From NCBI GenBank assembly GCA_003649205.1, contig QMRC01000006.1, forward strand, positions 13,190 through 77,189: a stretch of 64,000 nt of DNA. The letters are read 5' to 3'. A model generated the notes under the pieces. That model was given only the letters and a program-made list of their open reading frames with translations, was not told the DNA's origin and did not search any database. The stretch comes from Thermoprotei archaeon. Lineage in GTDB: Archaea; Thermoproteota; Thermoprotei; Thermoproteales; B15-G16. The position numbers and the translations under genes are program-made. Shown here one piece after another: positions 5,471 to 46,557 of the stretch (the stretch's first letter is position 1; the number at the start of each line of letters is the position of its first letter).

Positions 5471-5626
5471 ATGAAGGAGCTGAAGAAGAGAGCTATATCA
5501 CTCGTCATAGCATCCATAGCACTCTCCACACTCGCACTAGCATACACACTGAGCGAACAGTACCTAGTATCAACCATTACACTTGCATTACTATTACTAC
5601 TCCTCACATTGCTCCTCCTCAGGTAA
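5471..5626 (+). CDS. small hydrophobic protein (51 aa), not in the ORF track
   Basis: ATG at 5471. MKELKKRAISLVIASIALSTLALAYTLSEQYLVSTITLALLLLLLTLLLLR has two hydrophobic stretches. It looks more protein-like than the overlapping low-complexity track ORF 5437..5631. Confidence 0.3.
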   Translation: MKELKKRAISLVIASIALSTLALAYTLSEQYLVSTITLALLLLLLTLLLLR

Positions 5627-5672
5627 CTTAATTAACGTAGTTAGGTAACTAAGAGTAATGAGGGTTTAGTAC

Positions 5673-31413: not shown

Positions 31414-32233
31414 AACAAAACACCACTCAAAAATGATACAGCACTAACAACTCAATAACTTATCGACTTAGTAAATCAGTAATCAGAGCCCCATATCGAG
31501 AGTAAAACTCAACATACTCATCGAGAGTACGGCAGAATGGCAGCAGTGGCTTCTCAACATAACAGCTATTAAAGCTGTAGACGATACTTAAGGGCATCCA
31601 GATTTAGGACGCAATTCAGACTTAAGGCCGTGAATAAATCCATCAATGACCTTAACACATTCCGTATATGTAGTACATACGCCAAGGCCTTGTCACTACG
31701 TACCCAACCCTCCAATAGTCAGTACCGAAGAACAGAACCCTACCATCAACACCACGAAGCACAGTAACAACAGGAATACCCAACGTAAATTCTTCTGTAA
31801 TCTTGGATGAGGTTCAAGTACTAAGAAAACAGCACAACACCACCAATGTAGGTACCTTAAGCGATTTCAGAATAGACCTTGATTAACGGCACTTACACTA
31901 CGTGAAGACCACGTAATGAGGTCTACACCAAGTTCTTTAGCAATTTTCATAGCACCTAACTCAATAAACTTTAGATACACTCACGTGAAGTACTGATTTG
32001 ACAAGTGGTGACAAGTCTCTACTCTCTGCTAATGTGCTTGAGAATTTTGAGGAGCACTATGAGTAGGATCACTGATCATTAATGTAGTTGGTTTTAGTTT
32101 CCTCATGTACCCTCAATCCGCGAAGGTACGTACTATCGTGCCTATCCTTAGCGTTGCACCATTACCCAATATGAGCGATAACTTAATTTGTAGGATCTCT
32201 AGAGCACGTGTTTTCGTCTATTTAGGGTAGGTA

Positions 32234-33574
32234 GTGCACTTTATGAGATTTGGAGAGAAGCTAGGTGCGCTCTTAATGGTTGAAGCTGCATTTGCTGGAG
32301 CATACGTTAGCATTACTCGTGGTTTCTTCTACTTGATGATGGTTGAACGTGGTTATAGTGTTAGGGATCTAGCTGTAGTTAGCCTAGTGGCTTCACTATC
32401 TATGGTGCTTGTGAGCTACCTACTGTACAGGAGACCTGAGCTACTTGAGAGAAGCGTCAAGGTTAAACTCCTCACCATGCACATACTCGAGAGAATTTTC
32501 TGGTGCATTCTACCATTCATAGTGTTTAGATTTAGCTACATGTTTATCCTCCTAGCTTACTCACTAGCACAGGTCATTACTGTACCTGTGTGCGTGCTGC
32601 TGAATACTGTGTTACTCTCTCAGCTAAGTGAGGACGAGTTCAAGAGCGTTACTGGGTGGAGGAATTCCCTTGGCCTAATCTCGTCATTAAGTGCTCAGCT
32701 ATTGGCGGTCCACGTGTTAGCATCTATGAGGAGTCCAGTACGGTACTACTACCTTTACACAATTGCTCTACTCCTTGGCTTCCTCTCATGGATTCCACTT
32801 ACTATTGCTAGAGTTAGGGACTATGTGAGGAAGGTTAGTGGTTACTCTAGTGAGGAGGTTGAGGTTATTGCTGGTACTACGTTCATATACTTGGTCCTTC
32901 TACTTGGATCAGCTAACATGCTCAGCATCCTCTGGGTACCATATCTGGTGAATGACCTAGGTGCACCGAGCTACCTAGTAGCTATCATGAACGCTGCTGG
33001 TACGATCTCTGGTTCCATATCGTCAGTTCTCTGGATTAGAGTTGTGTACAGGTACTATCTCTGTGGACTAGTTATTGACTCAGCTGTACCAACCTTAGTC
33101 ATGACATTACCACCAATATTCCATCCAGCTCTAGCTGGGCTCTCAGCTTTTGGCTTTACAGCAGGTAACTTCATTGGCTACTTCATGTACTCGAAGATAG
33201 CGGAGAAAAGCGACCCCATAAAGAACTCCACTAGGTTAGCTGCTGCTAATGCACTGGGTCTCCTAATATCATTGATACCAGTTGCTATCTTGAATTTGAG
33301 CGCTAGGGATGGACTAATTCTCTGTAGTTGCTTGAAGGTACTAGCTCTCGTAATTGCTCTGCTGAGTATTAAGGAAGTATCGCCACTTCCTGATCCACGT
33401 ATCAGGACTTATAGTAAGGTAATCTTCGAGACAGGTATGTTCTCATACAGGTTAACGCTCGAATTCACTACTCACTACGTACTATATACCTTGAAGATAG
33501 TAGCTGTTGTCCTTATAATGCTCTTCATGTACTTCATCTACAGGACAGTTACCATACTGATTAGTGGTGCGTAG
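32234..33574 (+). CDS. polytopic membrane protein (MFS-like transporter)
   Basis: 446 aa with about 12 hydrophobic segments in two halves. No strong signature motif. Confidence 0.5.
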   Translation: MHFMRFGEKLGALLMVEAAFAGAYVSITRGFFYLMMVERGYSVRDLAVVSLVASLSMVLVSYLLYRRPELLERSVKVKLLTMHILERIFWCILPFIVFRFSYMFILLAYSLAQVITVPVCVLLNTVLLSQLSEDEFKSVTGWRNSLGLISSLSAQLLAVHVLASMRSPVRYYYLYTIALLLGFLSWIPLTIARVRDYVRKVSGYSSEEVEVIAGTTFIYLVLLLGSANMLSILWVPYLVNDLGAPSYLVAIMNAAGTISGSISSVLWIRVVYRYYLCGLVIDSAVPTLVMTLPPIFHPALAGLSAFGFTAGNFIGYFMYSKIAEKSDPIKNSTRLAAANALGLLISLIPVAILNLSARDGLILCSCLKVLALVIALLSIKEVSPLPDPRIRTYSKVIFETGMFSYRLTLEFTTHYVLYTLKIVAVVLIMLFMYFIYRTVTILISGA

Positions 33575-34235
33575 TATGGAGTTATTGAACATGAGCAATG
33601 GCGAGGTAGCATTTGAGAGAATAATTCAAGCATTTAAGTTGGCACTAAATGAATTGATAGCACTGGTACCTGTAGTACTAGCATCTGTCCTCATAGTTGC
33701 ACTCATGCTAGTAATTGCTAAGTACGTAGGTTCTCTTGTCAAGAGGATACTGAAGGTAGTTGGTCTAGATAGGATACTTGAGAGGTACGTAGGTACACCA
33801 CCGATATCTGTCGAGAACTTCATCGTCGTATTCATACAGCTGGGCTTCGTAATACTTGGCGTAACAATATCCGTGACAGTATTCGCACCTGAGTACCTAG
33901 CTACCTACAACATGTACCTATCCTATATACTGAGGTTGATGTCGGCTGTAGCACTCATAATAATAACGCTCTTCTGGATAGAGGTACTAGTGAATAAGAT
34001 TCGTGGTGAGAGCAAGGTAAAGGCATTTGCCTCACTAATAGCCTTCCTCCTAATACTCACCTTCATAATCGACGTAACAGCACTATCTGAAAGCGTTAAG
34101 TCATCACTCGTATTCGGAATATCCCTTGGACTTGGATTGACAATAGGAGTATTCTCCATATGGTACTTCATGCATGAATACCTTGAGCACTACATCAGCA
34201 GAAAGCATGGAGAGAAAGAGGTCAGACAAGGCTGA
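33564..34235 (+). CDS. membrane protein; its last 5 codons plus stop form attL
   Basis: 223 aa with several TM helices. The 3' end GAG GTC AGA CAA GGC TGA coincides with the 17-bp direct repeat. Confidence 0.5.
   Translation: MVRSMELLNMSNGEVAFERIIQAFKLALNELIALVPVVLASVLIVALMLVIAKYVGSLVKRILKVVGLDRILERYVGTPPISVENFIVVFIQLGFVILGVTISVTVFAPEYLATYNMYLSYILRLMSAVALIIITLFWIEVLVNKIRGESKVKAFASLIAFLLILTFIIDVTALSESVKSSLVFGISLGLGLTIGVFSIWYFMHEYLEHYISRKHGEKEVRQG
34219..34235. repeat. attL: 17-bp direct repeat AGGTCAGACAAGGCTGA
   Basis: An exact copy occurs at 45006-45022. It lies 10 bp upstream of the integrase gene. Confidence 0.75.
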
Positions 34236-34245
34236 TTGAGTTCTC

Positions 34246-35409
34246 ATGGAAGAAATCACACCTGATAGCCCTATCTATCAGGTGAGAATAGGTCTCAATT
34301 CGATGGAGTTGCTGAAGCACTTTGAGAGTTGGTTAATTGCTCAGAACCTGTCCGTGGCTACGGTTAGGTCTCATGTTAGACAGGTTAGGTCTTTCCTCAC
34401 GTGGTTTGGTAGGTCTATCGAGGATTTGAGTAGTTTCGATATTGCGTGTTACCTAGCTGAGTGCCGTAAGCGTGGTCTATCTGAGGCTAGTGTGAATCGC
34501 TATGCTTCTGCTCTCAAGAAATTCCTGAGGTTCCTAGCTAGTTACTTCAGAGCTAGGAGAAGGGTTGAGTTAGCTAATTACTTTGAGCAGGTGTACCGTG
34601 AGGTCAAGGTACCTAAGTACGACCTAGTTGAGGTCAGCATTAAGCGACACATGGAGCCTGATACAGCGAGGAAAGTCATAGACTTAATTCATGACCCCTA
34701 CTGGAAGTGCTTTTTCGCTGTGCTGTATGAGACAGGTCTGAGGTTGAGGGAGCTTAGACAGGTCAAGGTAAGTGATGTTCACGAGAACAAGCACGGGTTC
34801 GAGATAGTTGTCAGAGATAGCAAGACACCTGAGGGAGTTAGGAAAGTGTACGTGGTTGAGTACTATCAGCTACTGAGGTACTACCTAGAGCATGTACGTC
34901 CGAGAGATAGCGAGTGGTTGTTCCCTGCTAGGAGAGACCCAAGGCAACCAATCTCCGAGAAAGCAATCTACAGCTTTCTAAACCGCTTCAGAAAGCGGAC
35001 AGGTATCGTGATTAGTCCACACCGCTTTAGACACGCTAGAGCTACTGAGCTTTACCGCAAGGGAGTATCTGAGCAGTCGTTAATGAGGTTGTTTGGTTGG
35101 AGGACAAGGACAATGATTGATGTCTACAGTAAGCTTTCACAGCGAGATGTGGAGTCTGAGCTACTGAGCAAGGTCTACGGGCTATCCCCTGTAGAGAGTG
35201 AGAGGTCTCAGACTCGTAAGTGCCCGAGGTGTGGTGCTGAGGTAATACCCACAGCTAGGTACTGTCCATACTGTGGTCTAGCCCTAGATATTGCGTCAGT
35301 ATTAGGCAAAGAGGAACAGGTACGGAAATACGCAGAGCTCATTGAAGCACTGCTGAGGTACCTAGAGGAACACCCAGAGTACCTGTCGAAACTATTCTCA
35401 AGGACTTAA
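34246..35409 (+). CDS. int: tyrosine recombinase/integrase with C-terminal zinc ribbon
   Basis: N-terminal SAM-like core-binding domain. Catalytic blocks are ETGLRLRELRQVKVSDV (Arg), HRFRHARATELY (H-x-x-R) and LFGWRTRTMIDVYS (Tyr). The C-terminal tail carries CPRCGAEV..YCPYCG. Confidence 0.9.
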   Translation: MEEITPDSPIYQVRIGLNSMELLKHFESWLIAQNLSVATVRSHVRQVRSFLTWFGRSIEDLSSFDIACYLAECRKRGLSEASVNRYASALKKFLRFLASYFRARRRVELANYFEQVYREVKVPKYDLVEVSIKRHMEPDTARKVIDLIHDPYWKCFFAVLYETGLRLRELRQVKVSDVHENKHGFEIVVRDSKTPEGVRKVYVVEYYQLLRYYLEHVRPRDSEWLFPARRDPRQPISEKAIYSFLNRFRKRTGIVISPHRFRHARATELYRKGVSEQSLMRLFGWRTRTMIDVYSKLSQRDVESELLSKVYGLSPVESERSQTRKCPRCGAEVIPTARYCPYCGLALDIASVLGKEEQVRKYAELIEALLRYLEEHPEYLSKLFSRT

Positions 35410-35562
35410 AAGCGGACATGAAACACAGGCAGAGAACACCAAGACCCGCCCTATAGTCCAGAGGAAATGTTGCCTGAATTCAACAATAGTCTAATATGCG
35501 TATACGTGTGAGTGAACAGCGAGCGAGGTAATACACCACTTGAGGATGAATAGGGGCTCCTC

Positions 35563-35631
35563 GGGGGATGATGAAGGGCTTAGCGGAGCGACCCCGCAAG
35601 GGGGTATGGCTGGACCAGGCTAGCTGACCCC
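35563..35631 (+). ncRNA. GC-rich structured RNA candidate with external C/D-box-like K-turn (element-borne)
   Basis: GGGG-AUGAUGA (C box 35568-35574) ... CUGA (35624-35627)-CCCC terminal stem, with an internal CCCC-GCAA-GGGG tetraloop hairpin (35592-35603). The internal D'/C' boxes are not recognisable. Confidence 0.35.
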
Positions 35632-35753
35632 TACCCCCTCGCCCCGTGATAATGGGTTATTATCACCAATATTTAAGTTTCTATGCAATTACAGTGAAAT
35701 TACCATGGTTACTTTCTCGTGAGGGGGTTTAAGAACCCTTGATACGTCTTTGC

Positions 35754-36101
35754 TTAGCCTTTCTTTCTGATTAGTCCTCCTATTGCTCCTCCTATCATTG
35801 ATAGGAATGCTGAGGCTAGCATCATGAATATTATTGCTAACCCTGCTAACCCACCTGCCCATGCTCCTAGGAATCCAGCTACTGAGAAGCCTAGTACTGT
35901 CAGCACTATTGCTGCTAGTATTCCTCCAATGATTCCACTGAGGAACCCTGCTGCTGCTCCTCTACCTGCTCCTCCTCCAGCTACTAGACCTGCTATGAAG
36001 CCTCCAAGTACTGGTGCGAAGATGTGTAGTATGGGTGAGAGTACGGCTGTAGCTAACATACCTGCAAAGACACCAGCTATGAAACTCAGTACACGACCCA
36101 T
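35754..36101 (-). CDS. Gly/Ala-rich small membrane protein
   Basis: 115 aa with 3-4 TM helices made of G/A/I/L repeats and a basic C-terminus. The opposite-strand ORF is a Pro/Ala shadow. Confidence 0.5.
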   Translation of the reverse strand: MGRVLSFIAGVFAGMLATAVLSPILHIFAPVLGGFIAGLVAGGGAGRGAAAGFLSGIIGGILAAIVLTVLGFSVAGFLGAWAGGLAGLAIIFMMLASAFLSMIGGAIGGLIRKKG

Positions 36102-36371
36102 GTAGGGAAAACCCCGAGGAAACCAGATACAGAGAGGACATAAAGCAGTTCAGAACATAGAGAGCAATGAACCTAGCAACCTCAGAGGACAGAAAACAAG
36201 AACGCTCCTCCGGTCGGTGATGAATACTTGTACTTTTCTCTCGGTGACTTTCCTCAAGGCACTAAATAAGAAATTGCTCTACTCTACAGTGGTATGGATT
36301 CTGAGGATTTTTGGATTGGTTTTCTCCTTGGTTACAGTACTGGTCTTATTCATGCGAAAAACTTAACAACT

Positions 36372-36755
36372 TCAGAACTTGTCTTCAGGCTCATTTCCTG
36401 TTCCTTCATGCTCAGTGAGTTGTTGGGTACTAGACTTAATGAGTTCTTCAGCTCTTTGGAGAAGTTCAGCGACTTCACGACCCTTCTCAGTGAGCTCAAT
36501 GTACCTAAGACCGTGCTTGGTATACGTCCTAACAAGACCGTACTGAAGACAGGTACTGAGGGCTCTGTAAGTACTGACAGGTGAGATACCGTATCTCTGA
36601 AGTTCTCTAATGTGCATAGCTCTACCTGTTTTGTGAAGAATTAGCAGCAATTTAATTCCCGGTCTACCTAAGTCATCAGCTAGAGCTGACATTTTCCTCT
36701 GTCGTTTTCTGGTGATAAACCTAATAACGATATCTTCGAGCATTCGTAACCTCAT
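36372..36755 (-). CDS. winged-helix transcriptional regulator
   Basis: LLLILHKTGRAMHIRELQRYGISPVSTYRALSTCLQYGLVRTY..YIELTEKGREV is a wHTH (ArsR/MarR-like) pattern. It is transcribed divergently from the RHH-led operon. Confidence 0.65.
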   Translation of the reverse strand: MRLRMLEDIVIRFITRKRQRKMSALADDLGRPGIKLLLILHKTGRAMHIRELQRYGISPVSTYRALSTCLQYGLVRTYTKHGLRYIELTEKGREVAELLQRAEELIKSSTQQLTEHEGTGNEPEDKF

Positions 36756-36786
36756 TCTCAGTCTATACCCGATTTAGAGGTATCAC

Positions 36787-36850
36787 GTAATAATATTACA
36801 ACGCTATATCTCGAAACTGATAAATTGTTATAACGTTACAGAGTTGTAAC
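36787..36850. promoter_or_regulatory. divergent promoter/operator region with inverted repeats
   Basis: GTAATAATATTAC (36787-36799), palindrome GTTATAAC (36827-36834) and GTTACA-gagt-TGTAAC (36835-36850). All lie between the wHTH gene and the RHH gene. Confidence 0.4.
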
Positions 36851-36853
36851 AGG

Positions 36854-37051
36854 GTGAGAGAGGTGCCTAAGAGTAAGGTGCCTATGGTCTTGGTTACCTT
36901 CCATATCCCGATACCACTCCTTAGAGAACTTGACAGGTTGGTGGAGGAGGGTAAGTTCCCGAGCAGGAGCGAGGCGATAAGGCACGCAATAATCCAACTC
37001 CTAGCTCGTGAGCGTCAAAGAACACAAATACACGAGGTGTTGGTAGCGTGA
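36854..37051 (+). CDS. ribbon-helix-helix (CopG/Arc-type) DNA-binding protein
   Basis: MVLVTFHIPIPLLRELDRLVEEGKFPSRSEAIRHAI is a textbook RHH pattern. The true start may be the ATG at 36884. Confidence 0.7.
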   Translation: MREVPKSKVPMVLVTFHIPIPLLRELDRLVEEGKFPSRSEAIRHAIIQLLARERQRTQIHEVLVA

Positions 37052-37296
37052 CCATTGTCAACTATGTCGAGGTAATTAGGAACATCATACTCAATGCTTT
37101 GAAGGAGCATGGCTACATTAGTGACCTAGAGCTTGTTAGGGCTGTCAAAGAGGCTACGGGACTCAGCTACGTAGACTTTGCTCCCATTCTTGAGCAGGTA
37201 CTGAGTGAGCTAATGAGGTCTGGCGCAATTAGACGTGTAATGTCAGCAAGCAACCCGAGAAAGGTCGAGCATGGGTGGGAGCTGTGTACACAATAA
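37048..37296 (+). CDS. hypothetical protein (element)
   Basis: 82-aa ORF coupled to the upstream RHH gene by a GTGA overlap. Confidence 0.5.
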   Translation: MTIVNYVEVIRNIILNALKEHGYISDLELVRAVKEATGLSYVDFAPILEQVLSELMRSGAIRRVMSASNPRKVEHGWELCTQ

Positions 37297-37640
37297 AGCC
37301 GAATGGATTCTACCTCAGGTTGGTTTTGGATGCACTGAAGTACTGTGCTAGGACTGAAAGAGGCTCTATTGTGTCTATTTACCCAAAGAAAGTCGCTAAG
37401 TTAAATGGGTACAGTGTTCGTGCATGTGGGAGGTATAGAGATGACAGTGAGGTAGAGAGGTCGCTATCCCCTGCCGAGCTATCTATCATTAGGTACTGGC
37501 TGGATTACCTCTGGGTCAATGGGCTGTGTAGCCGTGAGAAGACTAGTCGTGACAGGTGGAACTACGTATTCCCGAGGGAGAACTTGCCTAAGGCTATCAA
37601 GCTACTTGAGGAGGTGCTCAATGGTGAAGTACAAGATTGA
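37275..37640 (+). CDS. hypothetical protein (element)
   Basis: 121-aa ORF in the co-directional early-gene string. Confidence 0.5.
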   Translation: MGAVYTIKPNGFYLRLVLDALKYCARTERGSIVSIYPKKVAKLNGYSVRACGRYRDDSEVERSLSPAELSIIRYWLDYLWVNGLCSREKTSRDRWNYVFPRENLPKAIKLLEEVLNGEVQD

Positions 37641-37761
37641 GGAGATAGTCAAGGAGTTGAAGGTTGCTCTCAGGGATAGAGAACTCAGAGAAGCATTGCT
37701 GAAGCACTTCTCCAACAACCCAAAGGCTCAAGCAATCATACTACTCCTGTCAGGTGAGTGA
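37621..37761 (+). CDS. small hypothetical protein (element)
   Basis: The ATG at 37621 (MVKYKIEEIVKELKVALRD..) overlaps the previous stop. The longer track ORF from 37519 overlaps the preceding gene extensively. Confidence 0.35.
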   Translation: MVKYKIEEIVKELKVALRDRELREALLKHFSNNPKAQAIILLLSGE

Positions 37762-38000
37762 GCATGATTGAGCTGAGTTTCAAGACGAAGCGGGACTTCG
37801 ATAACTGGGTTAAGGCGCTGTATGACTTCGGTTCGAATCACTGTGTTGAGCCTGTCGTCATCAAGCTAGATGGTAATGACCTCTACGACAGGTACATGGT
37901 CTGCATTGTGTACCATGCTTGGACTGAGGAAGGTGCTTACGCAGTGACCTGTCTAGCCCGCATAGTAGCGATAGTGTACAGGGAAGGTGAGCAGAAGTGA
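37758..38000 (+). CDS. hypothetical protein (element)
   Basis: 80-aa ORF with a 4-bp overlap with each neighbour. Confidence 0.5.
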   Translation: MSMIELSFKTKRDFDNWVKALYDFGSNHCVEPVVIKLDGNDLYDRYMVCIVYHAWTEEGAYAVTCLARIVAIVYREGEQK

Positions 38001-38179
38001 GTCGCTACCACGGGCACAAGGTAACTATCACGATTATTGCGACAACAGGTTCTGGACTACCGACAGGTGAGCGAAAGAGCGATTTCATTAGATTCATGGT
38101 CGAGCAGGTACTGGAACGTGAGCTTTCTAAGAGGCTCCGTGATTTCCGTGTCCTCAAAGTCATGGTGAAGGTGATGTAG
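37997..38179 (+). CDS. hypothetical protein (element)
   Basis: 60-aa ORF with a GTG start overlapping the previous stop. Confidence 0.4.
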   Translation: MSRYHGHKVTITIIATTGSGLPTGERKSDFIRFMVEQVLERELSKRLRDFRVLKVMVKVM

Positions 38180-38258
38180 ATGGTTCCTGCTACTACTACC
38201 TATTCTATTTCTAGTAATTCGTTTAGACAAAATACGCGGGACATTAAACGCGGTTCAG

Positions 38259-38383
38259 ATTGGAACCAATGTTCCCTCTCAGAGGAATCATTGAAACCAA
38301 TCATTGGAATCAATGTCAGTGGTATGATTGGAACCAATGATTGGAACCAATCATTCCACTCGCTTAGTCTCATTGGTTCCAAA
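38259..38383. repeat. iteron-like array of ATTGGAACCAAT half-palindromic 12-mers
   Basis: Copies lie at 38259-38270, 38290-38301 (ATTGAAACCAAT), 38303-38314 (ATTGGAATCAAT), 38327-38338, 38340-38351 and, inverted, 38372-38383 (ATTGGTTCCAAa). The region has no convincing ORF. Confidence 0.7.
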
Positions 38384-38394
38384 AACGGAGAGAG

Positions 38395-38718
38395 GTGTTG
38401 AGTATCCCCCGAATAACTATCTACATCCATGAGAGCGATTGGGAAAAGCTGACGAAAATAGCTGAGCAGAGAGGACAATCAATGTACAGCATAGTGAAGC
38501 AAGTAGTACTTGAGTTCCTGAAGCTAAGTAACCCAATTGTTGCTCATGGTAAGCTTTCTAGGGATTTAGCTACCTGTCGGAGCATTATCAAGCGATTTGG
38601 TTGGTGTGCTCTCTGCATACATGCTGAGGTTGTTGGTGATAGGTTAGTCTGCAGAAAGACAGGCAAAGTCATAGAAAAACCCATATGGCAATGCCCACAC
38701 CCCATACCCAAGGTGTAA
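38395..38718 (+). CDS. RHH-like N-terminal domain protein with Cys-rich C-terminal region
   Basis: ITIYIHESDWEKLTKIAEQRGQSMYSIVKQVVLEFL has a beta-strand/helix/helix pattern. The C-terminal region is CALCIHAE..CRKTG..CPH. It lies directly downstream of the iteron array. Confidence 0.5.
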   Translation: MLSIPRITIYIHESDWEKLTKIAEQRGQSMYSIVKQVVLEFLKLSNPIVAHGKLSRDLATCRSIIKRFGWCALCIHAEVVGDRLVCRKTGKVIEKPIWQCPHPIPKV

Positions 38719-38727
38719 ATCATGCTT

Positions 38728-38751
38728 TTTACACAGCTGCAGCTGTGTAAA
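38728..38751. promoter_or_regulatory. perfect 24-bp palindrome TTTACACAGCTGCAGCTGTGTAAA
   Basis: Read directly from the sequence. It is flanked by an AAATCAT / ATGATTT inverted pair and GTAAAT repeats, in the 76-bp gap upstream of ORF 38795. Confidence 0.5.
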
Positions 38752-38794
38752 TGATTTTTACTCACTGACAGGTGCGTAAATTTGGTGAGAATTC

Positions 38795-39163
38795 ATGTCC
38801 GAGATGGAGAAGTTAATTAGGAACCTGAACATACTGCGAAACTACTTCAGCAAGGTACCACCTGAAGTCATTGAGGCTCTCATGTACTTTGAGGATAGGT
38901 TCTTCACTGAGAAATACCATGTTGTTCGCTCTAAGACAGGTAGGGAGTATCGCTACAGGTACCTCTACATCAGGTTGAATGACTACAGGACACTAGGTTA
39001 CTTCAGGATAAATGATAGCAATGATGAATTGCTGCTACACGAAATTAGGCAGGTCAAGGCATTTTCACAAGCACTACTACAGTACATAGCAATGCTCAGA
39101 CACAGCAAACTAGCAAACCTCACCAAAATTTACTCAAGGACCTTGAGTAAAAACAACCAATAA
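38795..39163 (+). CDS. hypothetical protein (element)
   Basis: 122-aa ORF with no recognisable motif. Confidence 0.5.
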   Translation: MSEMEKLIRNLNILRNYFSKVPPEVIEALMYFEDRFFTEKYHVVRSKTGREYRYRYLYIRLNDYRTLGYFRINDSNDELLLHEIRQVKAFSQALLQYIAMLRHSKLANLTKIYSRTLSKNNQ

Positions 39164-39224
39164 CACATCAGCAATTGGGGAAATTGAATTGGGGTGATGC
39201 CCCCTGAACCTCAAGGTCTATTTC

Positions 39225-40211
39225 GTGAAGAAAACTAGGCAATACGAGGTCTATGAGGGCTCTAGGAGAATCCTCAGGACTAAGGTACATGCAAAAGCTC
39301 ACGAGTACCTATCGAAACAAATCAATTCAAGTTTTGAGTTCTACTTTGTTTGTTGCAATAGGGAGCACCTGTTAGCATGTTCACGTTTCTTTGAACTCAC
39401 AGGTCGCAGGCTCAATGTGTTGATTAGTTACAACTTCATACGTGACAGGTACCTCACACAGGTGCTTCAGCAAGTTAGACCACACCTAAGCAAAGTCATG
39501 ATTGATTCAGGTGCTTTCCATGTACTTATCCGCAAGGTACCCCTGGAAAAGTTCCAGAGCTACATAGGTGAGTACGTGAATTGGCTCAACAACCACACAG
39601 AGCTTTACGACTACTGTGTCGCACCTGACGTACCCTGTGATGAACGACCCGCAGAAAAAATCCAGAAACTACCAAACAGGTACAAGATAGAGCTAACCAT
39701 AGCTAACACAGTTCACTGGATAGATAGGTTGACAGACCCTCGCAAGGCTGTGGCTGTAGTTCAGGGTTATTTCGTGAATGAGTACCTGCTCTGTGCTGAG
39801 AAGCTGAAAGAACTCGGGCTCACAACAGCAAAGACAGGTGTCGGCTCTTTATGTGTCAGGAAATACAGTAGACAACAAGCACGTGAAGTACCACAGATAC
39901 TAGCTAGCATAAGACAGGTCTTACCGTCATGGGTGAAACTTCACGCATTCGGTCTTCAGCTAGATTTCTTACCGACCTGTCTCAAGTACCTACACAGCTC
40001 AGACAGTGCCTCATGGCAATTAAGTTACTCAAAGTTCAATAGGATACGAATAGCGAACCTGTCGACAGGTCAAACAGTTGAGCTTGATTTAGTTAGTCAT
40101 GGCGGAGCGAGGAAAAAGAACCTAGACCAAGTCACGATATACACATACAACCTCTTAGCCTACTGGAATAGAGTTCAGCAACTAACGAGACAGGCAGCAC
40201 AGACAAAATAA
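39225..40211 (+). CDS. TGT-fold transglycosylase, DpdA-like (candidate DNA or tRNA 7-deazaguanine transglycosylase)
   Basis: The order of blocks matches tRNA-guanine transglycosylases. These are MIDSGAFHV (Asp94, cf. DSGGFQ), AVVQGY (cf. VQGG), GVGSLC, KLHAFGL (cf. xLxGxG) and HSSDSASW (Asp260, cf. FDS/FDC). There is no PUA domain and no Cys-Cys-Cys-His zinc site, as in the short phage/island DpdA proteins. Confidence 0.6.
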   Translation: MKKTRQYEVYEGSRRILRTKVHAKAHEYLSKQINSSFEFYFVCCNREHLLACSRFFELTGRRLNVLISYNFIRDRYLTQVLQQVRPHLSKVMIDSGAFHVLIRKVPLEKFQSYIGEYVNWLNNHTELYDYCVAPDVPCDERPAEKIQKLPNRYKIELTIANTVHWIDRLTDPRKAVAVVQGYFVNEYLLCAEKLKELGLTTAKTGVGSLCVRKYSRQQAREVPQILASIRQVLPSWVKLHAFGLQLDFLPTCLKYLHSSDSASWQLSYSKFNRIRIANLSTGQTVELDLVSHGGARKKNLDQVTIYTYNLLAYWNRVQQLTRQAAQTK

Positions 40212-40230
40212 AGTAAGTGTTGAAAACTGC

Positions 40231-40995
40231 TCAAGTCCCCATGTTCTCTATCTCATGTCCTGTAGGGTATAGGTTCAGTTTCTTTATGTACTTGTACACT
40301 GTTTGACGTGAAACACCGAGTGCTCTAGCTATATCACTTATACTGTAACCTTTCTTCAACATATCCTCAATAGTCTTCTCCCTATTAGCAGTCTGGATAG
40401 CTACCTGTAAGTCCATGAACACCTTCTCAACAAAGAGCCTCCTCATTTCCTGATACTTCACATAGATGTCGTGGTCTAGCTTAGGCACGAAGGTATCTAC
40501 ACCAATTTCCTTCACCACGAACTTACCCGTAGGAGTCCACGTAAACCTGTAGATGTGTGCCTCTCTCTCACCTTGCTTACTCTTCCTAATGTGTACATGT
40601 ATCCAACACATCTCACGTAGTGCTCTTAAGAGCAGGCGATAGGTAGGTACCGTGAATATGACAGCACCTGTCACAGTCCTAGCAACCTCAAGGAACTTTA
40701 CAAATAGCTGACGGTCTTCTTTAAGAAAGTCATATTTGCTTATCCACACACCAGCATCATCATAGCACAGACACTTAACACGCTTACGATACCTAAGACA
40801 CTCCCTAATAATTGGGAAAGACTGCTTAACATCGAAGAATACGTAGTTGAGAGCAGTCTCCCTACAATACAGCTCACTCAAGACCTTGATAGCGTAGGTA
40901 GTCTTACCAACCCCTTGCTGACCCTGAATAACAATAACCTCAAATCCATTGTTCCTGAAAGCACGCTCAATTATCTTAGTTAGGACAAACGGCAT
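40231..40995 (-). CDS. P-loop NTPase with C-terminal helix-turn-helix
   Basis: Walker A QGQQGVGKTTYA, Walker B-like CLCYDDAG, and a C-terminal GYSISDIARALGVSRQTVYKYIKKL (resolvase/HTH_7-like). Confidence 0.7.
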   Translation of the reverse strand: MPFVLTKIIERAFRNNGFEVIVIQGQQGVGKTTYAIKVLSELYCRETALNYVFFDVKQSFPIIRECLRYRKRVKCLCYDDAGVWISKYDFLKEDRQLFVKFLEVARTVTGAVIFTVPTYRLLLRALREMCWIHVHIRKSKQGEREAHIYRFTWTPTGKFVVKEIGVDTFVPKLDHDIYVKYQEMRRLFVEKVFMDLQVAIQTANREKTIEDMLKKGYSISDIARALGVSRQTVYKYIKKLNLYPTGHEIENMGT

Positions 40996-40998
40996 ACC

Positions 40999-41301
40999 TC
41001 ACTCCTCCTCAATCTCCTCCTCACGACCAACAGGTATGAACCTCTTACGACCCATTACATGCGTTATAGTCCTGAAGAACTTAGCAAACGATAGCAGAGC
41101 TGAGTAACCACGACCGCCCTCAGCTAACCTCAACTCAAGGTAAGGTATGATGAATGAGTCTCTCAAGTCCTGAAGGTTGTACCTGTCGCATATGAAGAGC
41201 AACGTAGCTATCTTACGAGCCTCACCATACTGCAACCTAGTTAAGCGAAGTATGTTCCCCGAGGTAAGAGCCTCAATTAGTTCCTCTGACATGAGCCTCA
41301 C
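40999..41301 (-). CDS. hypothetical protein (element)
   Basis: 100-aa ORF with an acidic tail, coupled to the neighbouring genes. Confidence 0.5.
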   Translation of the reverse strand: MRLMSEELIEALTSGNILRLTRLQYGEARKIATLLFICDRYNLQDLRDSFIIPYLELRLAEGGRGYSALLSFAKFFRTITHVMGRKRFIPVGREEEIEEE

Positions 41302-41302
41302 C

Positions 41303-41758
41303 TCACAGGTGAATGATACCGAACTTCACGAGCATGAACATGATGTACGCACCTATGATTAACCCACAAATCAGAGCAATGATGACAGGAGTAGCCCTAA
41401 CAGGTACCTTCTCCGTTAGCAGAGCCCTCAGTACCTGTCCCTTGATAATCTGCGATATAGTGTCACTATCAATGTAGGGGTCTTGATATTGACCACAGAA
41501 GTACACTATCTTTCTGACAGGTGCCCACACCTTCACGTCTCTAAACACCCTAACCCTACCCCCAGCAAGCACCAGCTTCCTCTCCGGATTGAGCAATTTA
41601 GCAGGCGTAATCTCGACATGCTTATCGTTCACGATAATAGCTATGTGCTTTGACCTGAAGATACGTCCTTCAGGTCTCGCTAGGAACATCATGATGAATG
41701 TGACAGGTATAGCTACGCAGTATATTGCGACTAGGATAGGGCTCAACATAGGGCTCAC
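41303..41758 (-). CDS. membrane protein (element)
   Basis: 151 aa with N- and C-terminal TM helices. Confidence 0.5.
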   Translation of the reverse strand: MSPMLSPILVAIYCVAIPVTFIMMFLARPEGRIFRSKHIAIIVNDKHVEITPAKLLNPERKLVLAGGRVRVFRDVKVWAPVRKIVYFCGQYQDPYIDSDTISQIIKGQVLRALLTEKVPVRATPVIIALICGLIIGAYIMFMLVKFGIIHL

Positions 41759-42280
41759 CTACAGAGTCTTCTCAGCTTCAGCAATGAGCTTGTTCAGGAC
41801 CTGCTCAACCCTCTCAATTCGCTTAGCTAACTCACTGAGCCTATCCTCACTATGATTTGAGCCTAGCTTACTCACGTCGATAGCGTCTAGGAATATCGAG
41901 AGCGGAACAGCAATAGCGTACTCAAACCTCTCAACCTTACCACTCTGCTCGACAGGTATCGTAACTTGCTGAGCCTCCCTCTCCCTCACCAAAATCAGAA
42001 CACGGTCAGGATTCCTAACCGCAGAGACAGGTAGCTTAGACAGGTACGGTCTCCTACCTGTCTCACTTTCGGACGTGTACGGTCTACCTCTCTGAAAGTG
42101 AAGTACTAAGCACAGAGCACCGAGACTAGCTAGAGCAATGAAACCAACCCACTTCAGCGTAAAGACCGCTCCAGAGGATATCTTAGCAGTCAGTGGTGAC
42201 AGGTATGGGTCATACCAAATCAAGTACATGACTGCACCTGTGAGCAGTGCTGTGCTCAGGTAAAGGAAACGAGTACTCAC
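41759..42280 (-). CDS. membrane protein (element)
   Basis: 173 aa with three N-terminal TM helices and a C-terminal coiled segment. Confidence 0.5.
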   Translation of the reverse strand: MSTRFLYLSTALLTGAVMYLIWYDPYLSPLTAKISSGAVFTLKWVGFIALASLGALCLVLHFQRGRPYTSESETGRRPYLSKLPVSAVRNPDRVLILVREREAQQVTIPVEQSGKVERFEYAIAVPLSIFLDAIDVSKLGSNHSEDRLSELAKRIERVEQVLNKLIAEAEKTL

Positions 42281-42405
42281 TTACAACCCACCTCACTTAT
42301 GTAAACTTTTTCACAAAAACCATAAGGTCAACTTGCGAGATATCCTGAATAATCACTGAACACGGAGCAAACCTGAGACAGGTCGAAAAGTAGGAGGTGA
42401 AGTAG

Positions 42406-42765
42406 GTGGACATAGACCTAGGGAACATCCTGAGAGCTGTCCTGTTTGTAGCCCTAATACCCACGCTATTCGGAGCTATAGCTGGATTCGTTGACCCTTC
42501 ACTACAACCAATGATACAGCCCCTACTCAGCCTAGTACCAATGCTCATAATCCTCAACCTAATCAAAGACCTGTTCTCAGAAGCTGGAGCAAAGGGATTC
42601 GTCAAGATATTCGATATCCTACTGCTCGTAATGATGTTACCTGTCCTAATCAACATGTTCGGAGCAGCCACAGGACAAAACGAAGCACTAGCACAAGTCT
42701 CAGGACTCCTACAGCAACTCCTACCAATCCTACTATTCATCAAGCTCATCGAAGAGATGGTTTAG
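42406..42765 (+). CDS. small membrane protein (element)
   Basis: 119 aa with 3-4 TM helices. It is immediately upstream of the large glycoprotein gene. I prefer it to the antisense track ORF 42297..42749. Confidence 0.5.
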   Translation: MDIDLGNILRAVLFVALIPTLFGAIAGFVDPSLQPMIQPLLSLVPMLIILNLIKDLFSEAGAKGFVKIFDILLLVMMLPVLINMFGAATGQNEALAQVSGLLQQLLPILLFIKLIEEMV

Positions 42766-42786
42766 TTCCTTCGAGGTGATTAAGCT

Positions 42787-44541
42787 ATGAAACCCAAGCC
42801 CCTTTTTGCAATCTTAACAGTACTCACTCTAGTGCTCATAGTGGCGGTTGTTAATGCTGGTGAGTACACGCTATACGATGTACTTCAGTACGCTCATGAG
42901 GTACATGTCTTCGGAAAGACATACAACACAGCAAGTTATGGCACCACAACTTACTCTGGGACATGGAATCTAACTGATGTTGTGTCGGGGAGGAAAGTTA
43001 CATTTGGCTACAGGCAATACCTACAAGACCCAGATAGCTCCGACACAATCGTTATTGTGTTTCAGAAGAATACAGCTATCGAGGTCGGTACTGGTAGCGG
43101 GAAGTGTGTCTACGGTAAACCTGTCGTAATTACGTATGATACTGAAACAGGAAGGAGGACTATGTACTACATTGATGGCGGTGAACTGAAGAAAGTAGGT
43201 GAATTCACTGGTGGTACCTACGTCTACTGGAACGGTACAAAGTTATGTCAAGCACTACGTTTCAAGGACTGGTTAGATTTCCACAAGTTCTTTAACAACA
43301 CATGCATGTTAATACTCCCAGACATCACGACATACGACTACAGGATAATTGATGGGTCTTCCGAGCTATTAAAGGATAAGTGTGGTGGAAATGGTTTCCA
43401 CACCCTCATTATCTTCGGTGGTGAGTACCTAAACAAATCGATAATTGTTGAAGTTGCTGGAGCCTACGGAATCAAGAACATAACGCTCACTACAGAACTC
43501 AACACAGTCTACACGATTGACCCAAAGCACTTGAAGTTAGCTGTGTTCACAGGTAACCTAACGGAGACGCTATCGAGGGCGAGCCAGAGCACAGAGGAAA
43601 GTACACAGGAAAGTACAACTAACACGACAAACGAGACCTCAACACCAACCACAGCACCAGAGACGAAGGTGTACAAGGTCACGATACATGTCTACGATGT
43701 GGATACCAATGAGGAAATCACATCAGCAATGGTTAAGGCGGGTTGGTTCACGAAGACAGGTTCACCTGTTACCTTTGAGTTCAAGTGGAAGGAACCACAG
43801 TGGTTACCTATCTCAGCTAGTGCTACAGGTTACAAGTCCTTCAGCACAACTATCTGGGTCGATACCAACATGACGCTGTGGGTAGGGCTAGTCAAGGAAA
43901 CCTCGAACAGCACCGAGCAATACAGTAAATTACTGAGGCTCGGTGTCTCAATTGCGGGTGTTGGTTCAACTCCATATTGGGCTCAGGAAAACAAGACATT
44001 CACAGAGTGGGCTAATGAGGTTGAGCAGTTACTATCCTCATCACAGGCTCCTGAGGTTAAGTATGAGACTACGTGGTATGGTTTGAAGATAGTCGCTGTG
44101 AAGGTACCTTCAGGTAGACCAGCATACGGAGTAGCGACTATTGTCGCTGTTAAGAAAGGATTTCTCGGTACCCTAACATGGGAAGAAGAACTCGGTACTG
44201 TGCAAATAGTGAATGGTACGGGTTATTTCCATGTTGACTACGAGACAATCAAGAACAAGCTACAACTCAAAGAGTGGGGAGGGGAGTACTTCTACGGTTT
44301 CAAGATTGTATGGAAGGTCGGTGACCTAGACCCAGAGGTCGAGGTTGTACCTGTCAAGAATACATGGACGCCTGTCTACATTCAGGTGAATGAGCAGACA
44401 GGAACCTACTCAGCAACAACACTACCACAGACAGCATTAACGAATGTCGGAACATCACTAACACAGATGCTCATAACCCTACTACCACTGTTCATCATAT
44501 TCGCACTCATTGGAGCTATTACAGGTCGTAGAAGGCGATAG
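42787..44541 (+). CDS. large secreted, C-terminally anchored glycoprotein-like protein (candidate virion/envelope or surface protein)
   Basis: Signal peptide MKPKPLFAILTVLTLVLIVAVVNA. Many N-x-S/T sequons. Thr/Ser-rich linker ESTQESTTNTTNETSTPTTAPETK. C-terminal TM helix plus RRRR stop-transfer. Confidence 0.6.
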   Translation: MKPKPLFAILTVLTLVLIVAVVNAGEYTLYDVLQYAHEVHVFGKTYNTASYGTTTYSGTWNLTDVVSGRKVTFGYRQYLQDPDSSDTIVIVFQKNTAIEVGTGSGKCVYGKPVVITYDTETGRRTMYYIDGGELKKVGEFTGGTYVYWNGTKLCQALRFKDWLDFHKFFNNTCMLILPDITTYDYRIIDGSSELLKDKCGGNGFHTLIIFGGEYLNKSIIVEVAGAYGIKNITLTTELNTVYTIDPKHLKLAVFTGNLTETLSRASQSTEESTQESTTNTTNETSTPTTAPETKVYKVTIHVYDVDTNEEITSAMVKAGWFTKTGSPVTFEFKWKEPQWLPISASATGYKSFSTTIWVDTNMTLWVGLVKETSNSTEQYSKLLRLGVSIAGVGSTPYWAQENKTFTEWANEVEQLLSSSQAPEVKYETTWYGLKIVAVKVPSGRPAYGVATIVAVKKGFLGTLTWEEELGTVQIVNGTGYFHVDYETIKNKLQLKEWGGEYFYGFKIVWKVGDLDPEVEVVPVKNTWTPVYIQVNEQTGTYSATTLPQTALTNVGTSLTQMLITLLPLFIIFALIGAITGRRRR

Positions 44542-44544
44542 AGC

Positions 44545-44847
44545 ATGACTAACCGCTACGTCTACCTTGGAAAGAAAGTGAAGGACATAGGCAAGAAAGG
44601 ACTAGACCGACCAAGCGAGTACCTAGCAATAGCGAGAGCTATAGCACAAGACTACAAGGCTGGTAGGATAAGTAAAAAGACTGCTCACGGACGCTTTTTA
44701 CTACTTTACAGGCTCGTGGATAAGAATAGCAAGCTGAAGGTACCTAAGTCAGTTAAGGAACGTCTCAAACGCAAGATTAAGGAAATCTGGATGAAGACCA
44801 TTGGAGGTGGGAAGGTGGCTCGAAAGAGGAAAAGAAAGAAAAGGTAG
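44545..44847 (+). CDS. small basic protein (possible nucleic-acid-binding)
   Basis: 100 aa, Lys/Arg-rich, with the C-terminal tail ARKRKRKKR. Confidence 0.5.
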   Translation: MTNRYVYLGKKVKDIGKKGLDRPSEYLAIARAIAQDYKAGRISKKTAHGRFLLLYRLVDKNSKLKVPKSVKERLKRKIKEIWMKTIGGGKVARKRKRKKR

Positions 44848-45003
44848 GCTCAAGTCACATCACCTGTATGTCGCTCTAACTACCTAATTTCTTGAGCTTG
44901 CTCTAGTCCTCAAGAATTCTTTACACATGTCTCATGTCCTGCGACCTGTCACCTAGACCTGAACTAGCTCAAGACAGAAGGTGGGTGACTTCTCTCAACT
45001 TAT

Positions 45004-45060
45004 TTAGGTCAGACAAGGCTGAATTCTTCACGGATCTGCCTCGCCTGGGCTCATCATAAA
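45004..45060 (-). ncRNA. C/D box sRNA (dual guide) whose 3' end is the att core
   Basis: The minus strand reads AUGAUGA(C, 45051-45057)-GCCCAGGCGAGG(12)-CAGA(D', 45035-45038)-UCC-GUGAAGA(C', 45025-45031)-AUUCAGCCUUGU(12)-CUGA(D, 45009-45012)-CCU. Confidence 0.75.
45006..45022. repeat. attR: 17-bp direct repeat AGGTCAGACAAGGCTGA
   Basis: Exact copy of 34219-34235. It lies inside the 3' part of the minus-strand C/D box sRNA. Confidence 0.75.
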
Positions 45061-45101: not shown

Positions 45102-45860
45102 CTAATCAGCAATCACATACCTAACCTCACCAGTGAAGCACCACTCACTCTCATCACTACGTTTGAGATCCACATCTACACACTTCTGCTGAAGATACAG
45201 TATTAGTTCTCGACTCGGGATTGCCTCACTAGGTAGTGAATCAAGAACACGTCTATACTGTACAGCTATGATTCCATCGAAGTACTTACTTAGCTCCTCA
45301 ACTGACTCAACAACCTTACTCTCTGGAATTAACTCAATACCGAAGAGGATGTAAGCAATGAAGCTAACCTCATCACCATAAACTTCACGACATTTCTCCC
45401 TAAGAGCATTCAACCTCACAATCTCACTCTGAGGAATACCCTTACACAACACAGCATTTCTCAGGTACTCATCCCAAACCTCAATACCAACCCTAATAAC
45501 GAGCCTACTAGGTTTAAGCAGCTCAAGCACCTGTCTCACAGAGTCAAAACTTAGGTACTCAGGTCTAGACTCAATATCCACAATTCTACCACAGGTAAAT
45601 CTAGAGAGCTTGAGCACGGTATCCAGAGGTAGCTCAAAGAATGAACCACCATTAAATACAGTAATTCTCTCAATACTAAACCTCAGGGTAGCATCTTCCA
45701 GAAGCGACAATATCTTGTCATTTGTCTGAATTACATCGGATAGTGAGTTACCTGCCTCAAGGAAGAAGGGACAGAAGACACATCTACCCCAACGACATCT
45801 AAATCCCTTGAGTATCACGATAGCTCTCTTCCTAGATCTCTCAATCACAACACCTAGCAC
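45102..45860 (-). CDS. RaSEA-like radical SAM protein (archaeosine formation partner of ArcS)
   Basis: Cys triad CRWGRCVFC (C-x4-C-x2-C, Elp3-like spacing) near the N-terminus, about 250 aa. It overlaps and is co-directional with the ArcS-like gene, the arrangement known for ArcS/RaSEA. Confidence 0.55.
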   Translation of the reverse strand: MLGVVIERSRKRAIVILKGFRCRWGRCVFCPFFLEAGNSLSDVIQTNDKILSLLEDATLRFSIERITVFNGGSFFELPLDTVLKLSRFTCGRIVDIESRPEYLSFDSVRQVLELLKPSRLVIRVGIEVWDEYLRNAVLCKGIPQSEIVRLNALREKCREVYGDEVSFIAYILFGIELIPESKVVESVEELSKYFDGIIAVQYRRVLDSLPSEAIPSRELILYLQQKCVDVDLKRSDESEWCFTGEVRYVIAD

Positions 45861-46557
45861 TGAGAATCTCCCTCAAACCACTAATTAACTTACTCAAACT
45901 AGTTGGAGTTATGAGTATGAGATCTGGATCATCGTAGTAACCACCTAGAGATACCTCATCAAGCTCATGAGGAGGTACCTCATTAACTCTCGCAGCTAAG
46001 TTCTTAACCTCAATACCTAGCATGGAACAAGCACGCTCTAGAGCAGCATAGCTATCTGAATCCCACCTTAGATACGACACAAAGCACTCATAATAACTCC
46101 TAAATCTACTCAGGAACAATCTCAATCTCTCACAGGTAACCTCCCTATAGAGTACCTTCACTTCACTAGTTTCATACTTAGGATTCCAGTCATACGCACA
46201 ATAGGGGTAGTACTCTTCAAGCTCTCTCGGTACGATACCGGCATTCGTTATAATGACTTGATGAATATCCTCGTAGTACCTACCTAACGACTTCAAAGCC
46301 CTAATTATGAAGTAGTGTATGTAGGATTGAGAGTACGGCTTACCGTAAGCACATGGTAGGAAGAGACAGACTCTATACCTCTTCCTTGGCTTCCACTCAG
46401 TTAGTAATCTCTTAAAACCCTCTTCAAAGAATGGGTGCTTAAGGTACCTAAGACCTACACCTCTGAGGAATTCCCTACCATCACCAGACCAGATAAGTTC
46501 GTGACCATCCCAAATAACGTACAAGCTAGATCCCTCAAGAAGTTCTCCACAAACCAA
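45841..46557 (-). CDS. ArcS-like protein (stand-alone DUF5591/ArcS catalytic-type domain)
   Basis: LPCAYGKPYSQSYIHY is an exact match to the ArcS signature PC-x3-KPY-x2-S-x2-H. At 238 aa it has no PUA domain. Confidence 0.75.
   Translation of the reverse strand: MVCGELLEGSSLYVIWDGHELIWSGDGREFLRGVGLRYLKHPFFEEGFKRLLTEWKPRKRYRVCLFLPCAYGKPYSQSYIHYFIIRALKSLGRYYEDIHQVIITNAGIVPRELEEYYPYCAYDWNPKYETSEVKVLYREVTCERLRLFLSRFRSYYECFVSYLRWDSDSYAALERACSMLGIEVKNLAARVNEVPPHELDEVSLGGYYDDPDLILITPTSLSKLISGLREILSARCCD

Follow-up and report, generated by a model that had tools for sequence, protein, structure and literature searches.

What reads a cluster of twelve-base palindromes in a gap between the genes of an integrated, virus-like element, and what would such a cluster do there? 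The question arises from a 64-kb stretch of archaeal DNA (contig QMRC01000006.1, positions 13,190 to 77,189), in the following called the window, with all coordinates counted from its first letter. The host of the element is a hydrothermal 'Thermoprotei archaeon', available as a metagenome-assembled genome (MAG) with DRJ40 locus tags. Between 38259 and 38383 the window contains six copies of the 12-mer ATTGGAACCAAT with at most one mismatch, and 12 bp separate the end of the sixth copy from the GTG codon at 38395 of a gene for a ribbon-helix-helix (RHH) protein. The array is real, statistically robust and non-coding, and to judge from its sequence it is a protein-binding one. We tentatively favor its reading as a multi-site operator, which would be bound cooperatively by this neighboring RHH protein.

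A repeat scan located the individual copies as follows:

Site 1, 38259..38270, + strand: ATTGGAACCAAT, exact; together with the 3' flank GTTCCCTCT it forms the extended unit U1, read on the − strand.
Site 2, 38290..38301, + strand: ATTGAAACCAAT, one mismatch; together with the 5' flank AGAGGAATC it forms U2; first half of doublet 1.
Site 3, 38303..38314, + strand: ATTGGAATCAAT, one mismatch; second half of doublet 1.
Site 4, 38327..38338, + strand: ATTGGAACCAAT, exact; together with the 5' flank AGTGGTATG it forms U3; first half of doublet 2.
Site 5, 38340..38351, + strand: ATTGGAACCAAT, exact; together with the 3' flank CATTCCACT it forms U4, read on the − strand; second half of doublet 2.
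Site 6, 38372..38383, − strand: inverted copy, TTTGGAACCAAT on the − strand and ATTGGTTCCAAA on the + strand; one mismatch.

These positions agree with a preliminary description of the same DNA, which had reported six 12-mers, three of them exact, two with one mismatch and one inverted, and had recognized the 13-bp tandem of the two exact copies at 38327 and 38340. No other copy at this threshold is present in the 64-kb window. The expected number of matches per 64 kb is 0.09 +/- 0.29, and none of 100 dinucleotide-preserving shuffles yielded six. Using a position weight matrix derived from the six sites, the sites themselves score 19-23 bits and the next-best site in the 64 kb reaches 13.6 bits. 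A 9-mer cluster scan of the whole window returned the array as its sole cluster.

The copies are organized at a higher level. The one-mismatch copies at 38290 and 38303 form a second 13-bp tandem, which had been overlooked before, and both doublets are part of a 37-bp unit that occurs twice with 83% matches. A conserved 9-nt flank extends four of the six copies to the 21-nt unit AGWGGNAWSATTGRWWCCAAT, in which 14 of 21 columns are invariant. Two large imperfect palindromes are built from these units:

38259..38301, no strand: 43-bp imperfect palindrome U1/U2, centered at 38280, with 22-nt arms that are 77% complementary and 1 nt between them.
38318..38360, no strand: 43-bp imperfect palindrome U3/U4, centered at 38339, with 21-nt arms that are 86% complementary and 1 nt between them; it encloses doublet 2.

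The entire array shows near-dyad symmetry around 38321, with start-to-start spacings of the 12-mers of 31, 13, 24, 13 and 32 bp. Inside the doublets the half-sites ATTGG and CCAAT are 7, 6 and 7 bp apart. The flank starts with AGWGG, a degenerate form of ATTGG, which allows the region to be read as consecutive half-sites with spacings of 9, 7, 6, 7 and 9 bp. The 12-mer itself is a near-perfect palindrome, and its AA/TT core points one way or the other independently of how the flank is oriented. Each 12-mer thus behaves as a functional palindrome, which fits a dimer with two-fold symmetry, for instance that of an RHH protein.

The half-site spacings of the doublets and their 13-bp period are within the range used by RHH dimers on adjacent subsites, which are spaced by 7 bp for omega, 8 bp for MetJ, 9 bp for CopG and 11 bp for Arc. 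Dimers of omega (plasmid pSM19035), ParG, CopG and MetJ polymerize on contiguous subsites of 7-13 bp in direct or inverted orientation, and the subsite arrays of omega and ParG serve as operator and also as centromere. The array described here resembles these targets in its contiguous short subsites, both direct and inverted, with spacings of 6-13 bp. In contrast to it, the known systems belong to bacterial plasmids with a ParA-type partner ATPase or a copy-control circuit, and no such partner is encoded here. The missing ParA/ParB-type gene also speaks against a partition site, which had been one of the functions considered in the preliminary description.

Is the array perhaps part of a coding sequence? 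The gap between the called genes extends from 38180 to 38394 and has a size of 215 bp, as reported before. Two open reading frames (ORFs) cover it, one at 38180-38401 on the + strand and one antisense, and the first of them could in principle encode a real protein of 73 amino acids, in which the repeats would be incidental. This ORF fits the gap precisely, which is a small oddity: its ATG directly follows the upstream TAG (38177-38182), and its TGA shares bases with the TTG start at 38398 (38398-38401). Its codon-usage log-odds are, however, negative (−0.15 bits per codon under the codon model of the host, −0.03 under that of the element), and those of the antisense ORF are 0.00, compared with +0.09 to +0.55 for all accepted genes of the element. 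The translation contains the DWNQ peptides that had been pointed out earlier; it is rich in Ser (18%) and Asn (10%), and Leu, Val and Ala are scarce. With their 13-bp period the array copies are translated in three different frames. The 12-mer is free of stop codons in all six frames, which explains the long ORFs on both strands and by itself favors open frames. A Pfam search of both ORFs gave no match, and the independent ENA and Logan annotations list neither ORF among their genes. The view that both ORFs are spurious is upheld; the gap is most likely non-coding, and we regard a true 73-amino-acid product as extremely improbable.

The strong palindromes could also act in the transcript. Two hairpins in an intercistronic or 5'-leader RNA would then control stability, processing or translation of the RHH mRNA. 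Consistent with this idea, the RNA of the gap folds at −66.3 kcal/mol (z = −4.0), and no T-run terminator is located between the upstream operon and the gap, so that the region is probably transcribed. On the other hand, the opposite strand folds equally well (z = −3.8), as would be the case for palindromes that act at the DNA level, and a hairpin requires complementarity and not the exact repetition of a 12-mer. Rfam and RNA family scans of the gap produced a chance miRNA match and no family above chance. A role at the RNA level is very unlikely. For a GC-rich stretch elsewhere in the element, at 35500-35670, the predicted structure was not significant (z = −0.56).

The gene next to the array and the sequence behind it have the following features:

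38395..38718, + strand: RHH gene, 106/107 amino acids, in which an N-terminal ribbon-helix-helix domain is followed by a C-terminal half rich in Cys and His; the start codon in the database is TTG 38398.
38722..38781, + strand: 24-bp perfect palindrome TTTACACAGCTGCAGCTGTGTAAA within a 29-bp two-copy repeat, with two runs of five T (T5), between the RHH gene and the next operon.

The product of 38395-38718 had been described as RHH-like from the letters alone, and several comparisons agree with this assignment. It matches Pfam RHH_1 with 19.8 bits (E 7.5e-4), its sequence matches in the PDB are all to Arc, Mnt or HP0222 (weak, E 0.03-2), and its PHROG label is 'Arc-like repressor'. A single-sequence model made with AlphaFold2 (AF2) contains helices at residues 13-26 and 30-44. 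The C-terminal half, with its pattern CxxC...C...CxH, may bind zinc. The palindrome at 38722-38781 is probably a terminator at which the transcription unit of the RHH gene ends; the T5 runs just past this gene suggest that the unit is closed there. In addition, it may be a second operator or the promoter of the next operon.

A precedent for an RHH gene with such a neighborhood is SSV1. The 9-mer cluster scan that we applied to the window also recovers the SSV1 arrays at 4972-5109 and 5681-5786, which coincide with the annotated T5 and T6 promoters. These arrays are targets of the RHH lysogeny regulator F55, which recognizes the 11-nt sequence ATAGATAGAGT in tandem (PMC9608457, PMC5569661) and binds in a cooperative and concentration-dependent manner (PMC5569661, PMC9608457). 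One of the two abuts an RHH ORF of 55 amino acids at 5510-5677 on the − strand, which is taken to be F55 and reaches 21.3 bits against RHH_1, compared with 19.8 bits for the protein studied here. Both cases combine a small RHH gene beside a repeat array, a non-coding gap and an integrating archaeal virus-type element with a B251-type ATPase, and in both several copies are clustered within 100-140 bp. They differ in the sites, which in SSV1 are direct tandems of 11 nt placed over the TFB recognition element (BRE), the TATA box and the transcription start site (TSS) of four promoters (T5, T6, Tind and Tlys), whereas here a 12-bp palindrome is used at one locus, apparently downstream of any promoter. 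The protein differs as well: it is twice as long as F55, has the Cys/His-rich C-terminal half, and shows no detectable sequence similarity to F55. The most plausible reading of the array is that of a set of F55-like operators for the neighboring RHH regulator.

Two further archaeal virus regulators, SvtR of SIRV1 and AvtR of AFV6, are RHH proteins that bind imperfect inverted repeats and spread, starting at a high-affinity site, towards promoters up to 80 nt distant (PMC5569661). Spreading of this kind would explain sites that are distant from a TATA box. SvtR and AvtR differ in having other motifs, one or two sites per target and several targets, and no homology to them was detected. Other loci of the ATPase family likewise carry arrays in non-coding gaps, which are flanked by AbrB/MazE-like genes or by genes for a winged helix-turn-helix (wHTH) protein of the F112 type. 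Arrays beside small transcription-factor genes are therefore the norm in these relatives. At one related hydrothermal locus (L152, 2629-2978) an AT-rich core is surrounded by ATTACAC-type repeats, five of them direct and three inverted; the gap that contains them is 350 bp long and is located between an ORF of 711 amino acids with a Walker-A-like GKS motif and an ORF of 55 amino acids that heads the ATPase operon. In ThalV2 (L103, 6714-6800) four TGTGTCCACA palindromes, one of them the variant TGTGACCACA, occupy a non-coding gap after the ATPase operon; TGTGTCCACA is another palindrome of the type half-site-N2-half-site.

In the operator model that we favor, about a dozen ATTGG/CCAAT half-sites, together with degenerate AGWGG half-sites, would be offered within 125 bp. 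A small dimeric protein of the element, the likeliest being the adjacent RHH protein, would assemble cooperatively on them. The bound complex would be placed between an AT-rich, promoter-like block at 38194-38234 and the RHH gene, and would repress transcription entering this gene, either from a local promoter or by read-through of the upstream small-ORF operon. Such repression would amount to negative autoregulation, or it would serve as a timing switch of the provirus program. The model builds on repeats and symmetry, the occurrence at a single locus, the non-coding gap, the RHH-like neighbor and the same arrangement in SSV1, all of which are directly observed; what we infer is the identity of the binder and its stoichiometry, as well as where the promoter lies and whether regulation is negative. 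Different palindromes are found in each of the other non-coding gaps of the element, and each gap thus appears to have its own operator. Among the three functions that the preliminary description had put forward (origin, partition site, operator), an operator for the RHH protein is best supported by spacing, symmetry, adjacency and the SSV1 precedent.

The sequence between the upstream operon and the array contains two features that bear on the position of a promoter:

38194..38234, no strand: AT-rich block, 75% AT, the least stable 40-bp duplex of the 10.8-kb element in a nearest-neighbor profile.
38226..38253, + strand: two tandem 14-bp units, GACAAAATACGCGG and GACATTAAACGCGG (family D3, 79% identity), between the AT-rich block and the array.

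The AT-rich block ends 25 bp upstream of the first repeat and is a candidate promoter region with TATA box and BRE, or a candidate DNA-unwinding element instead. The 14-bp pair is a family of two copies only and could have arisen by chance.

Several observations weigh against the operator model. Upstream of host genes the words CTTAAT and TTAATT are about 6-fold and TATTTA is about 10-fold enriched, and none of these de novo host promoter words was found in the gap, where there is weak resemblance at most; a TATA-like element is present neither within nor after the array. All six sites would lie downstream of any promoter in the gap, with a leader of at least 130 nt, whereas the F55 sites overlap BRE, TATA box and TSS. 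Six to sixteen half-sites are more than simple autoregulation requires. The RHH_1 score of the protein is just below the cutoff of 20.5 bits, and the AF2 model is poor (predicted local distance difference test, pLDDT, of 50), too poor for a fold search. Both the RHH protein and the array are without relatives in the collections searched. Finally, the element encodes three other candidate DNA binders:

36372-36755, − strand: wHTH gene, divergent from the first RHH gene.
36854-37051, + strand: first RHH gene, 98 bp from the wHTH gene.
40231..40995, − strand: B251/'DnaA-like' P-loop ATPase with a C-terminal resolvase-type helix-turn-helix (HTH; Pfam HTH_7, E 4e-10).

As a separate observation on promoters, those of the host appear to contain a ACTTAATT-type box 30-70 nt before the start codons, for example at 5627-5634 and 32182-32189.

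If the operator model is true, it would add one more archaeal virus regulator located beside its own repeated sites, a familiar arrangement by which no concept is changed. It would also provide the new motif ATTGG-N2-CCAAT and a new RHH-plus-Cys/His protein, and help to annotate an opaque provirus.

The instability of the AT-rich block and the ATPase lead to the question whether the gap is a replication origin. The 12-mers would then be initiator boxes beside a DNA-unwinding element, bound by the HTH of the ATPase in the manner of DnaA and its boxes or of Orc1 and mini-ORBs, or by a host initiator, and the block at 38194-38234 would melt and thereby initiate replication of the excised circle. 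This proposal is in line with the short distance of 25 bp between the array and the 40-bp stretch of lowest stability in the element, and with the possible extrusion of the palindromes as cruciforms (DNA fold, z = −6.6). Archaeal mini-ORBs (short forms of the origin recognition box, ORB) are dyad elements of about 13 bp that are repeated around an unwinding element. A likeness to iteron and mini-ORB origins is given by the cluster of boxes beside the DNA that melts most easily and by an AAA+ ATPase with a C-terminal DNA-binding domain.

The statement in the preliminary description that no Rep protein is recognizable holds in part. Scans of the element proteins detected no initiator of the HUH, Rep_trans-like (DUF7845) or primase type, and the idea of a Rep-Arvir protein was rejected, with no match to DUF7845 or another Rep among the element proteins (PMC13107129). 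Not covered by that statement was the ATPase 40231-40995, which matches phrog_5484, 'DnaA-like replication initiation protein', with E 5e-41; its combination with the lack of a typical Rep counts for an origin. It shares 30-35% identity (tblastn) with B251-type proteins of SMF1, SSV1-7 and others. An exhaustive search returned 486 relatives; only in a minority of them does the alignment extend through the HTH, an extra domain of this ATPase. ThalV2 and GacPV1, two pleomorphic viruses of hydrothermal origin, encode NTPases that are related to it more weakly (PMC10919331). The SSV1 region with its repeat arrays was also once proposed as an origin (PMC9608457).

Against an origin stands first the form of the sites. 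They are 12-bp palindromes with unphased spacing and one inverted copy, and not direct iterons of 17-22 bp; repeat length, internal symmetry and spacing all differ, and no initiator gene is adjacent. The label 'iteron-like' used in the preliminary description is therefore a loose one for spacings of 31 to 32 bp at the ends, 13 bp in the doublets and 24 bp between them with no rep gene adjoining. Archaeal ORB origins differ from the gap in that neither a G-string beside the sites nor a match to the ORB consensus was found, and no orc1/cdc6 gene is present in the element. The AT-rich block is located on one side of the array only, and AT-rich stretches of similar instability occur in the other promoter gaps of the element. 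Neither flanking gene is Rep-like, and the ATPase gene is 1.85 kb away on the opposite strand. The sign of the GC skew in the element tracks gene orientation and switches near 40200 and near 42300, not at the array. In ThalV2 and GacPV1 relatives of the ATPase coexist with a dedicated HUH Rep (PMC10919331); this includes relatives aligned through the HTH region, and the ATPase need not be the initiator.

Taken together, an origin at this position is unlikely, and we give a slightly lower chance still to its fuller form, in which the gap is the origin of a provirus lacking a Rep, the dyad 12-mers are read by the HTH of the B251/DnaA-like ATPase or by a recruited host initiator, and the AT-rich block unwinds. 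If true, it would be the first sequence-defined origin, and the first DNA target, assigned to the B251 ATPase family. This family is conserved across fuselloviruses and related pleomorphic viruses.

The array could also be the docking site of another element protein, either as a packaging or segregation signal for the HTH of the ATPase or as an operator for the wHTH or the first RHH protein. The sites recognized by HTH_7 domains measure about 12 bp, and in res-type sites six of these motifs are found within about 120 bp. PHROGs of terminase small subunits are among the matches to the HTH region of the ATPase, and the confinement of the motif to a single locus is as expected of a pac- or centromere-like site. 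For B251 and A154 a link to replication or packaging has been drawn from their presence on pSSVx (PMC9608457). In conflict with this explanation, the element proteins include no serine recombinase catalytic domain and no member of the ParA, ParB or AspA families, a monomeric HTH needs no internal dyad in the 12-mer, and no positional tie connects the ATPase with the gap. The wHTH and the first RHH protein have palindromes of their own by their genes. We consider a docking site of this kind rather improbable. Whichever protein is the binder, the array constitutes a short, defined DNA probe with which one can ask which of the four small DNA-binding proteins controls the element, and whether B251-family ATPases bind specifically.

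The palindromes by the wHTH and first RHH genes are located in the gap between them, at 36756-36853, and comprise GTAATAATATTAC, GTTATAAC and GTTAC-N6-GTAAC. GTAATAATATTAC contains TAATATTAC, which we take to be the nonanucleotide of HUH-Rep origins; as the element has no HUH Rep, its presence is probably due to chance.

The element as a whole, into which the operator model has to be placed, is delimited as follows:

34219..45022, no strand: integrated element, 10.8 kb, with 17-bp perfect direct repeats AGGTCAGACAAGGCTGA at 34219-34235 and 45006-45022.
34246-35409: tyrosine integrase, at the start of the element.

The left attachment site (att) repeat is identical with the 3' end, including the stop codon, of a membrane-protein gene at 33564-34235, and the element is thus integrated into a protein gene and not into a tRNA gene; ARAGORN found no tRNA in the window. 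The order of the genes that follow is the wHTH gene, divergent from the first RHH gene, a string of small ORFs, the gap with the array, and the RHH-plus-Cys/His gene. The latter is followed by the palindrome with the T5 runs, an ORF of 122 amino acids and a gene of the DpdA/tRNA-guanine transglycosylase (TGT) type. The ATPase gene is on the other strand, and the element is completed by genes for small hydrophobic proteins and an ORF of 584 amino acids with hydrophobic stretches at the N- and C-terminus. In our view the element merits more attention than the array: its recognizable virus links are only the B251-type ATPase and the tyrosine integrase, and it has a DpdA-like transglycosylase aboard.

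To find relatives, the element was compared by tblastn with 93 loci that contain ATPase relatives, phage records among them. Nearly all of the 93 loci share the ATPase alone with it. A few show weak matches to the integrase, a wHTH or an RHH protein, and one (L118) has one small ORF in common. No syntenic relative was present in the collections searched. When the RHH protein and the ATPase were used as queries of a word index, the same organism alone was retrieved, and the two other assemblies that contain the locus (L001 and L002) are 100% identical to the window. Homologs of the integrase with 31-36% identity are found in unrelated elements. Blastn and tblastn searches of phage records with the gap and the RHH protein gave no match.

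The array itself was sought by pattern. The tandem doublet had no match in the viral_contigs collection, and a looser two-copy pattern matched 95 times in genome_contigs and 11 times in viral_contigs. Of these matches we inspected six loci from Bathyarchaeia and one from Prevotellaceae. With one exception (L010) they carry the perfect palindrome ATTGGTACCAAT. In four of them (L017, L062, L030 and L078) it is intergenic and near host genes. We rejected these loci as homologs of the array. In the Bathyarchaeia MAGs, intergenic arrays contain the 16-bp palindrome GTATTGGTACCAATAC two to seven times, with the half-sites and spacer of the window motif, at these positions:

L017, 6716-7053: GTATTGGTACCAATAC array.
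L062, 2941-3109: GTATTGGTACCAATAC array.
L030, 435-580: GTATTGGTACCAATAC array.
L078, 6453-6492: GTATTGGTACCAATAC array.

Their neighbors include genes for hemerythrin-rubredoxin, Mtd and a MarR-like wHTH protein, and the arrays are probably the regulon of some host factor. A relationship between the wHTH of the element and the wHTH beside one of these arrays was not supported (BLASTP E 0.52). The exception, L010, is at the end of a low-GC Bathyarchaeia contig, where positions 86-121 contain ATTGGTTCCAAT, the exact 12-mer of the window, twice in a 12-bp tandem, together with a third copy with one mismatch and TGTATACATTGTATACAATG-type repeats on the flanks. Among the viral_contigs, five sequences of about 2.76 kb each (L198, L202-L204 and L207) have two copies of ATTGGWWCCAAT 24 bp apart; this size matches that of geminivirus genomes, and the copies may be Rep iterons.

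Finally, two genes, one in the element and one just outside it, may concern modified bases. The DpdA/TGT-like gene at 39225-40211 on the + strand matches Pfam DpdA with 27 bits and phrog_1279, queuine tRNA-ribosyltransferase, with E 4e-11, which hints at a 7-deazaguanine modification of the element DNA. Just beyond the right attachment site (attR), a host gene at 45841-46557 on the − strand encodes a protein with DUF5591, a domain of archaeosine synthase/TGT-family proteins.

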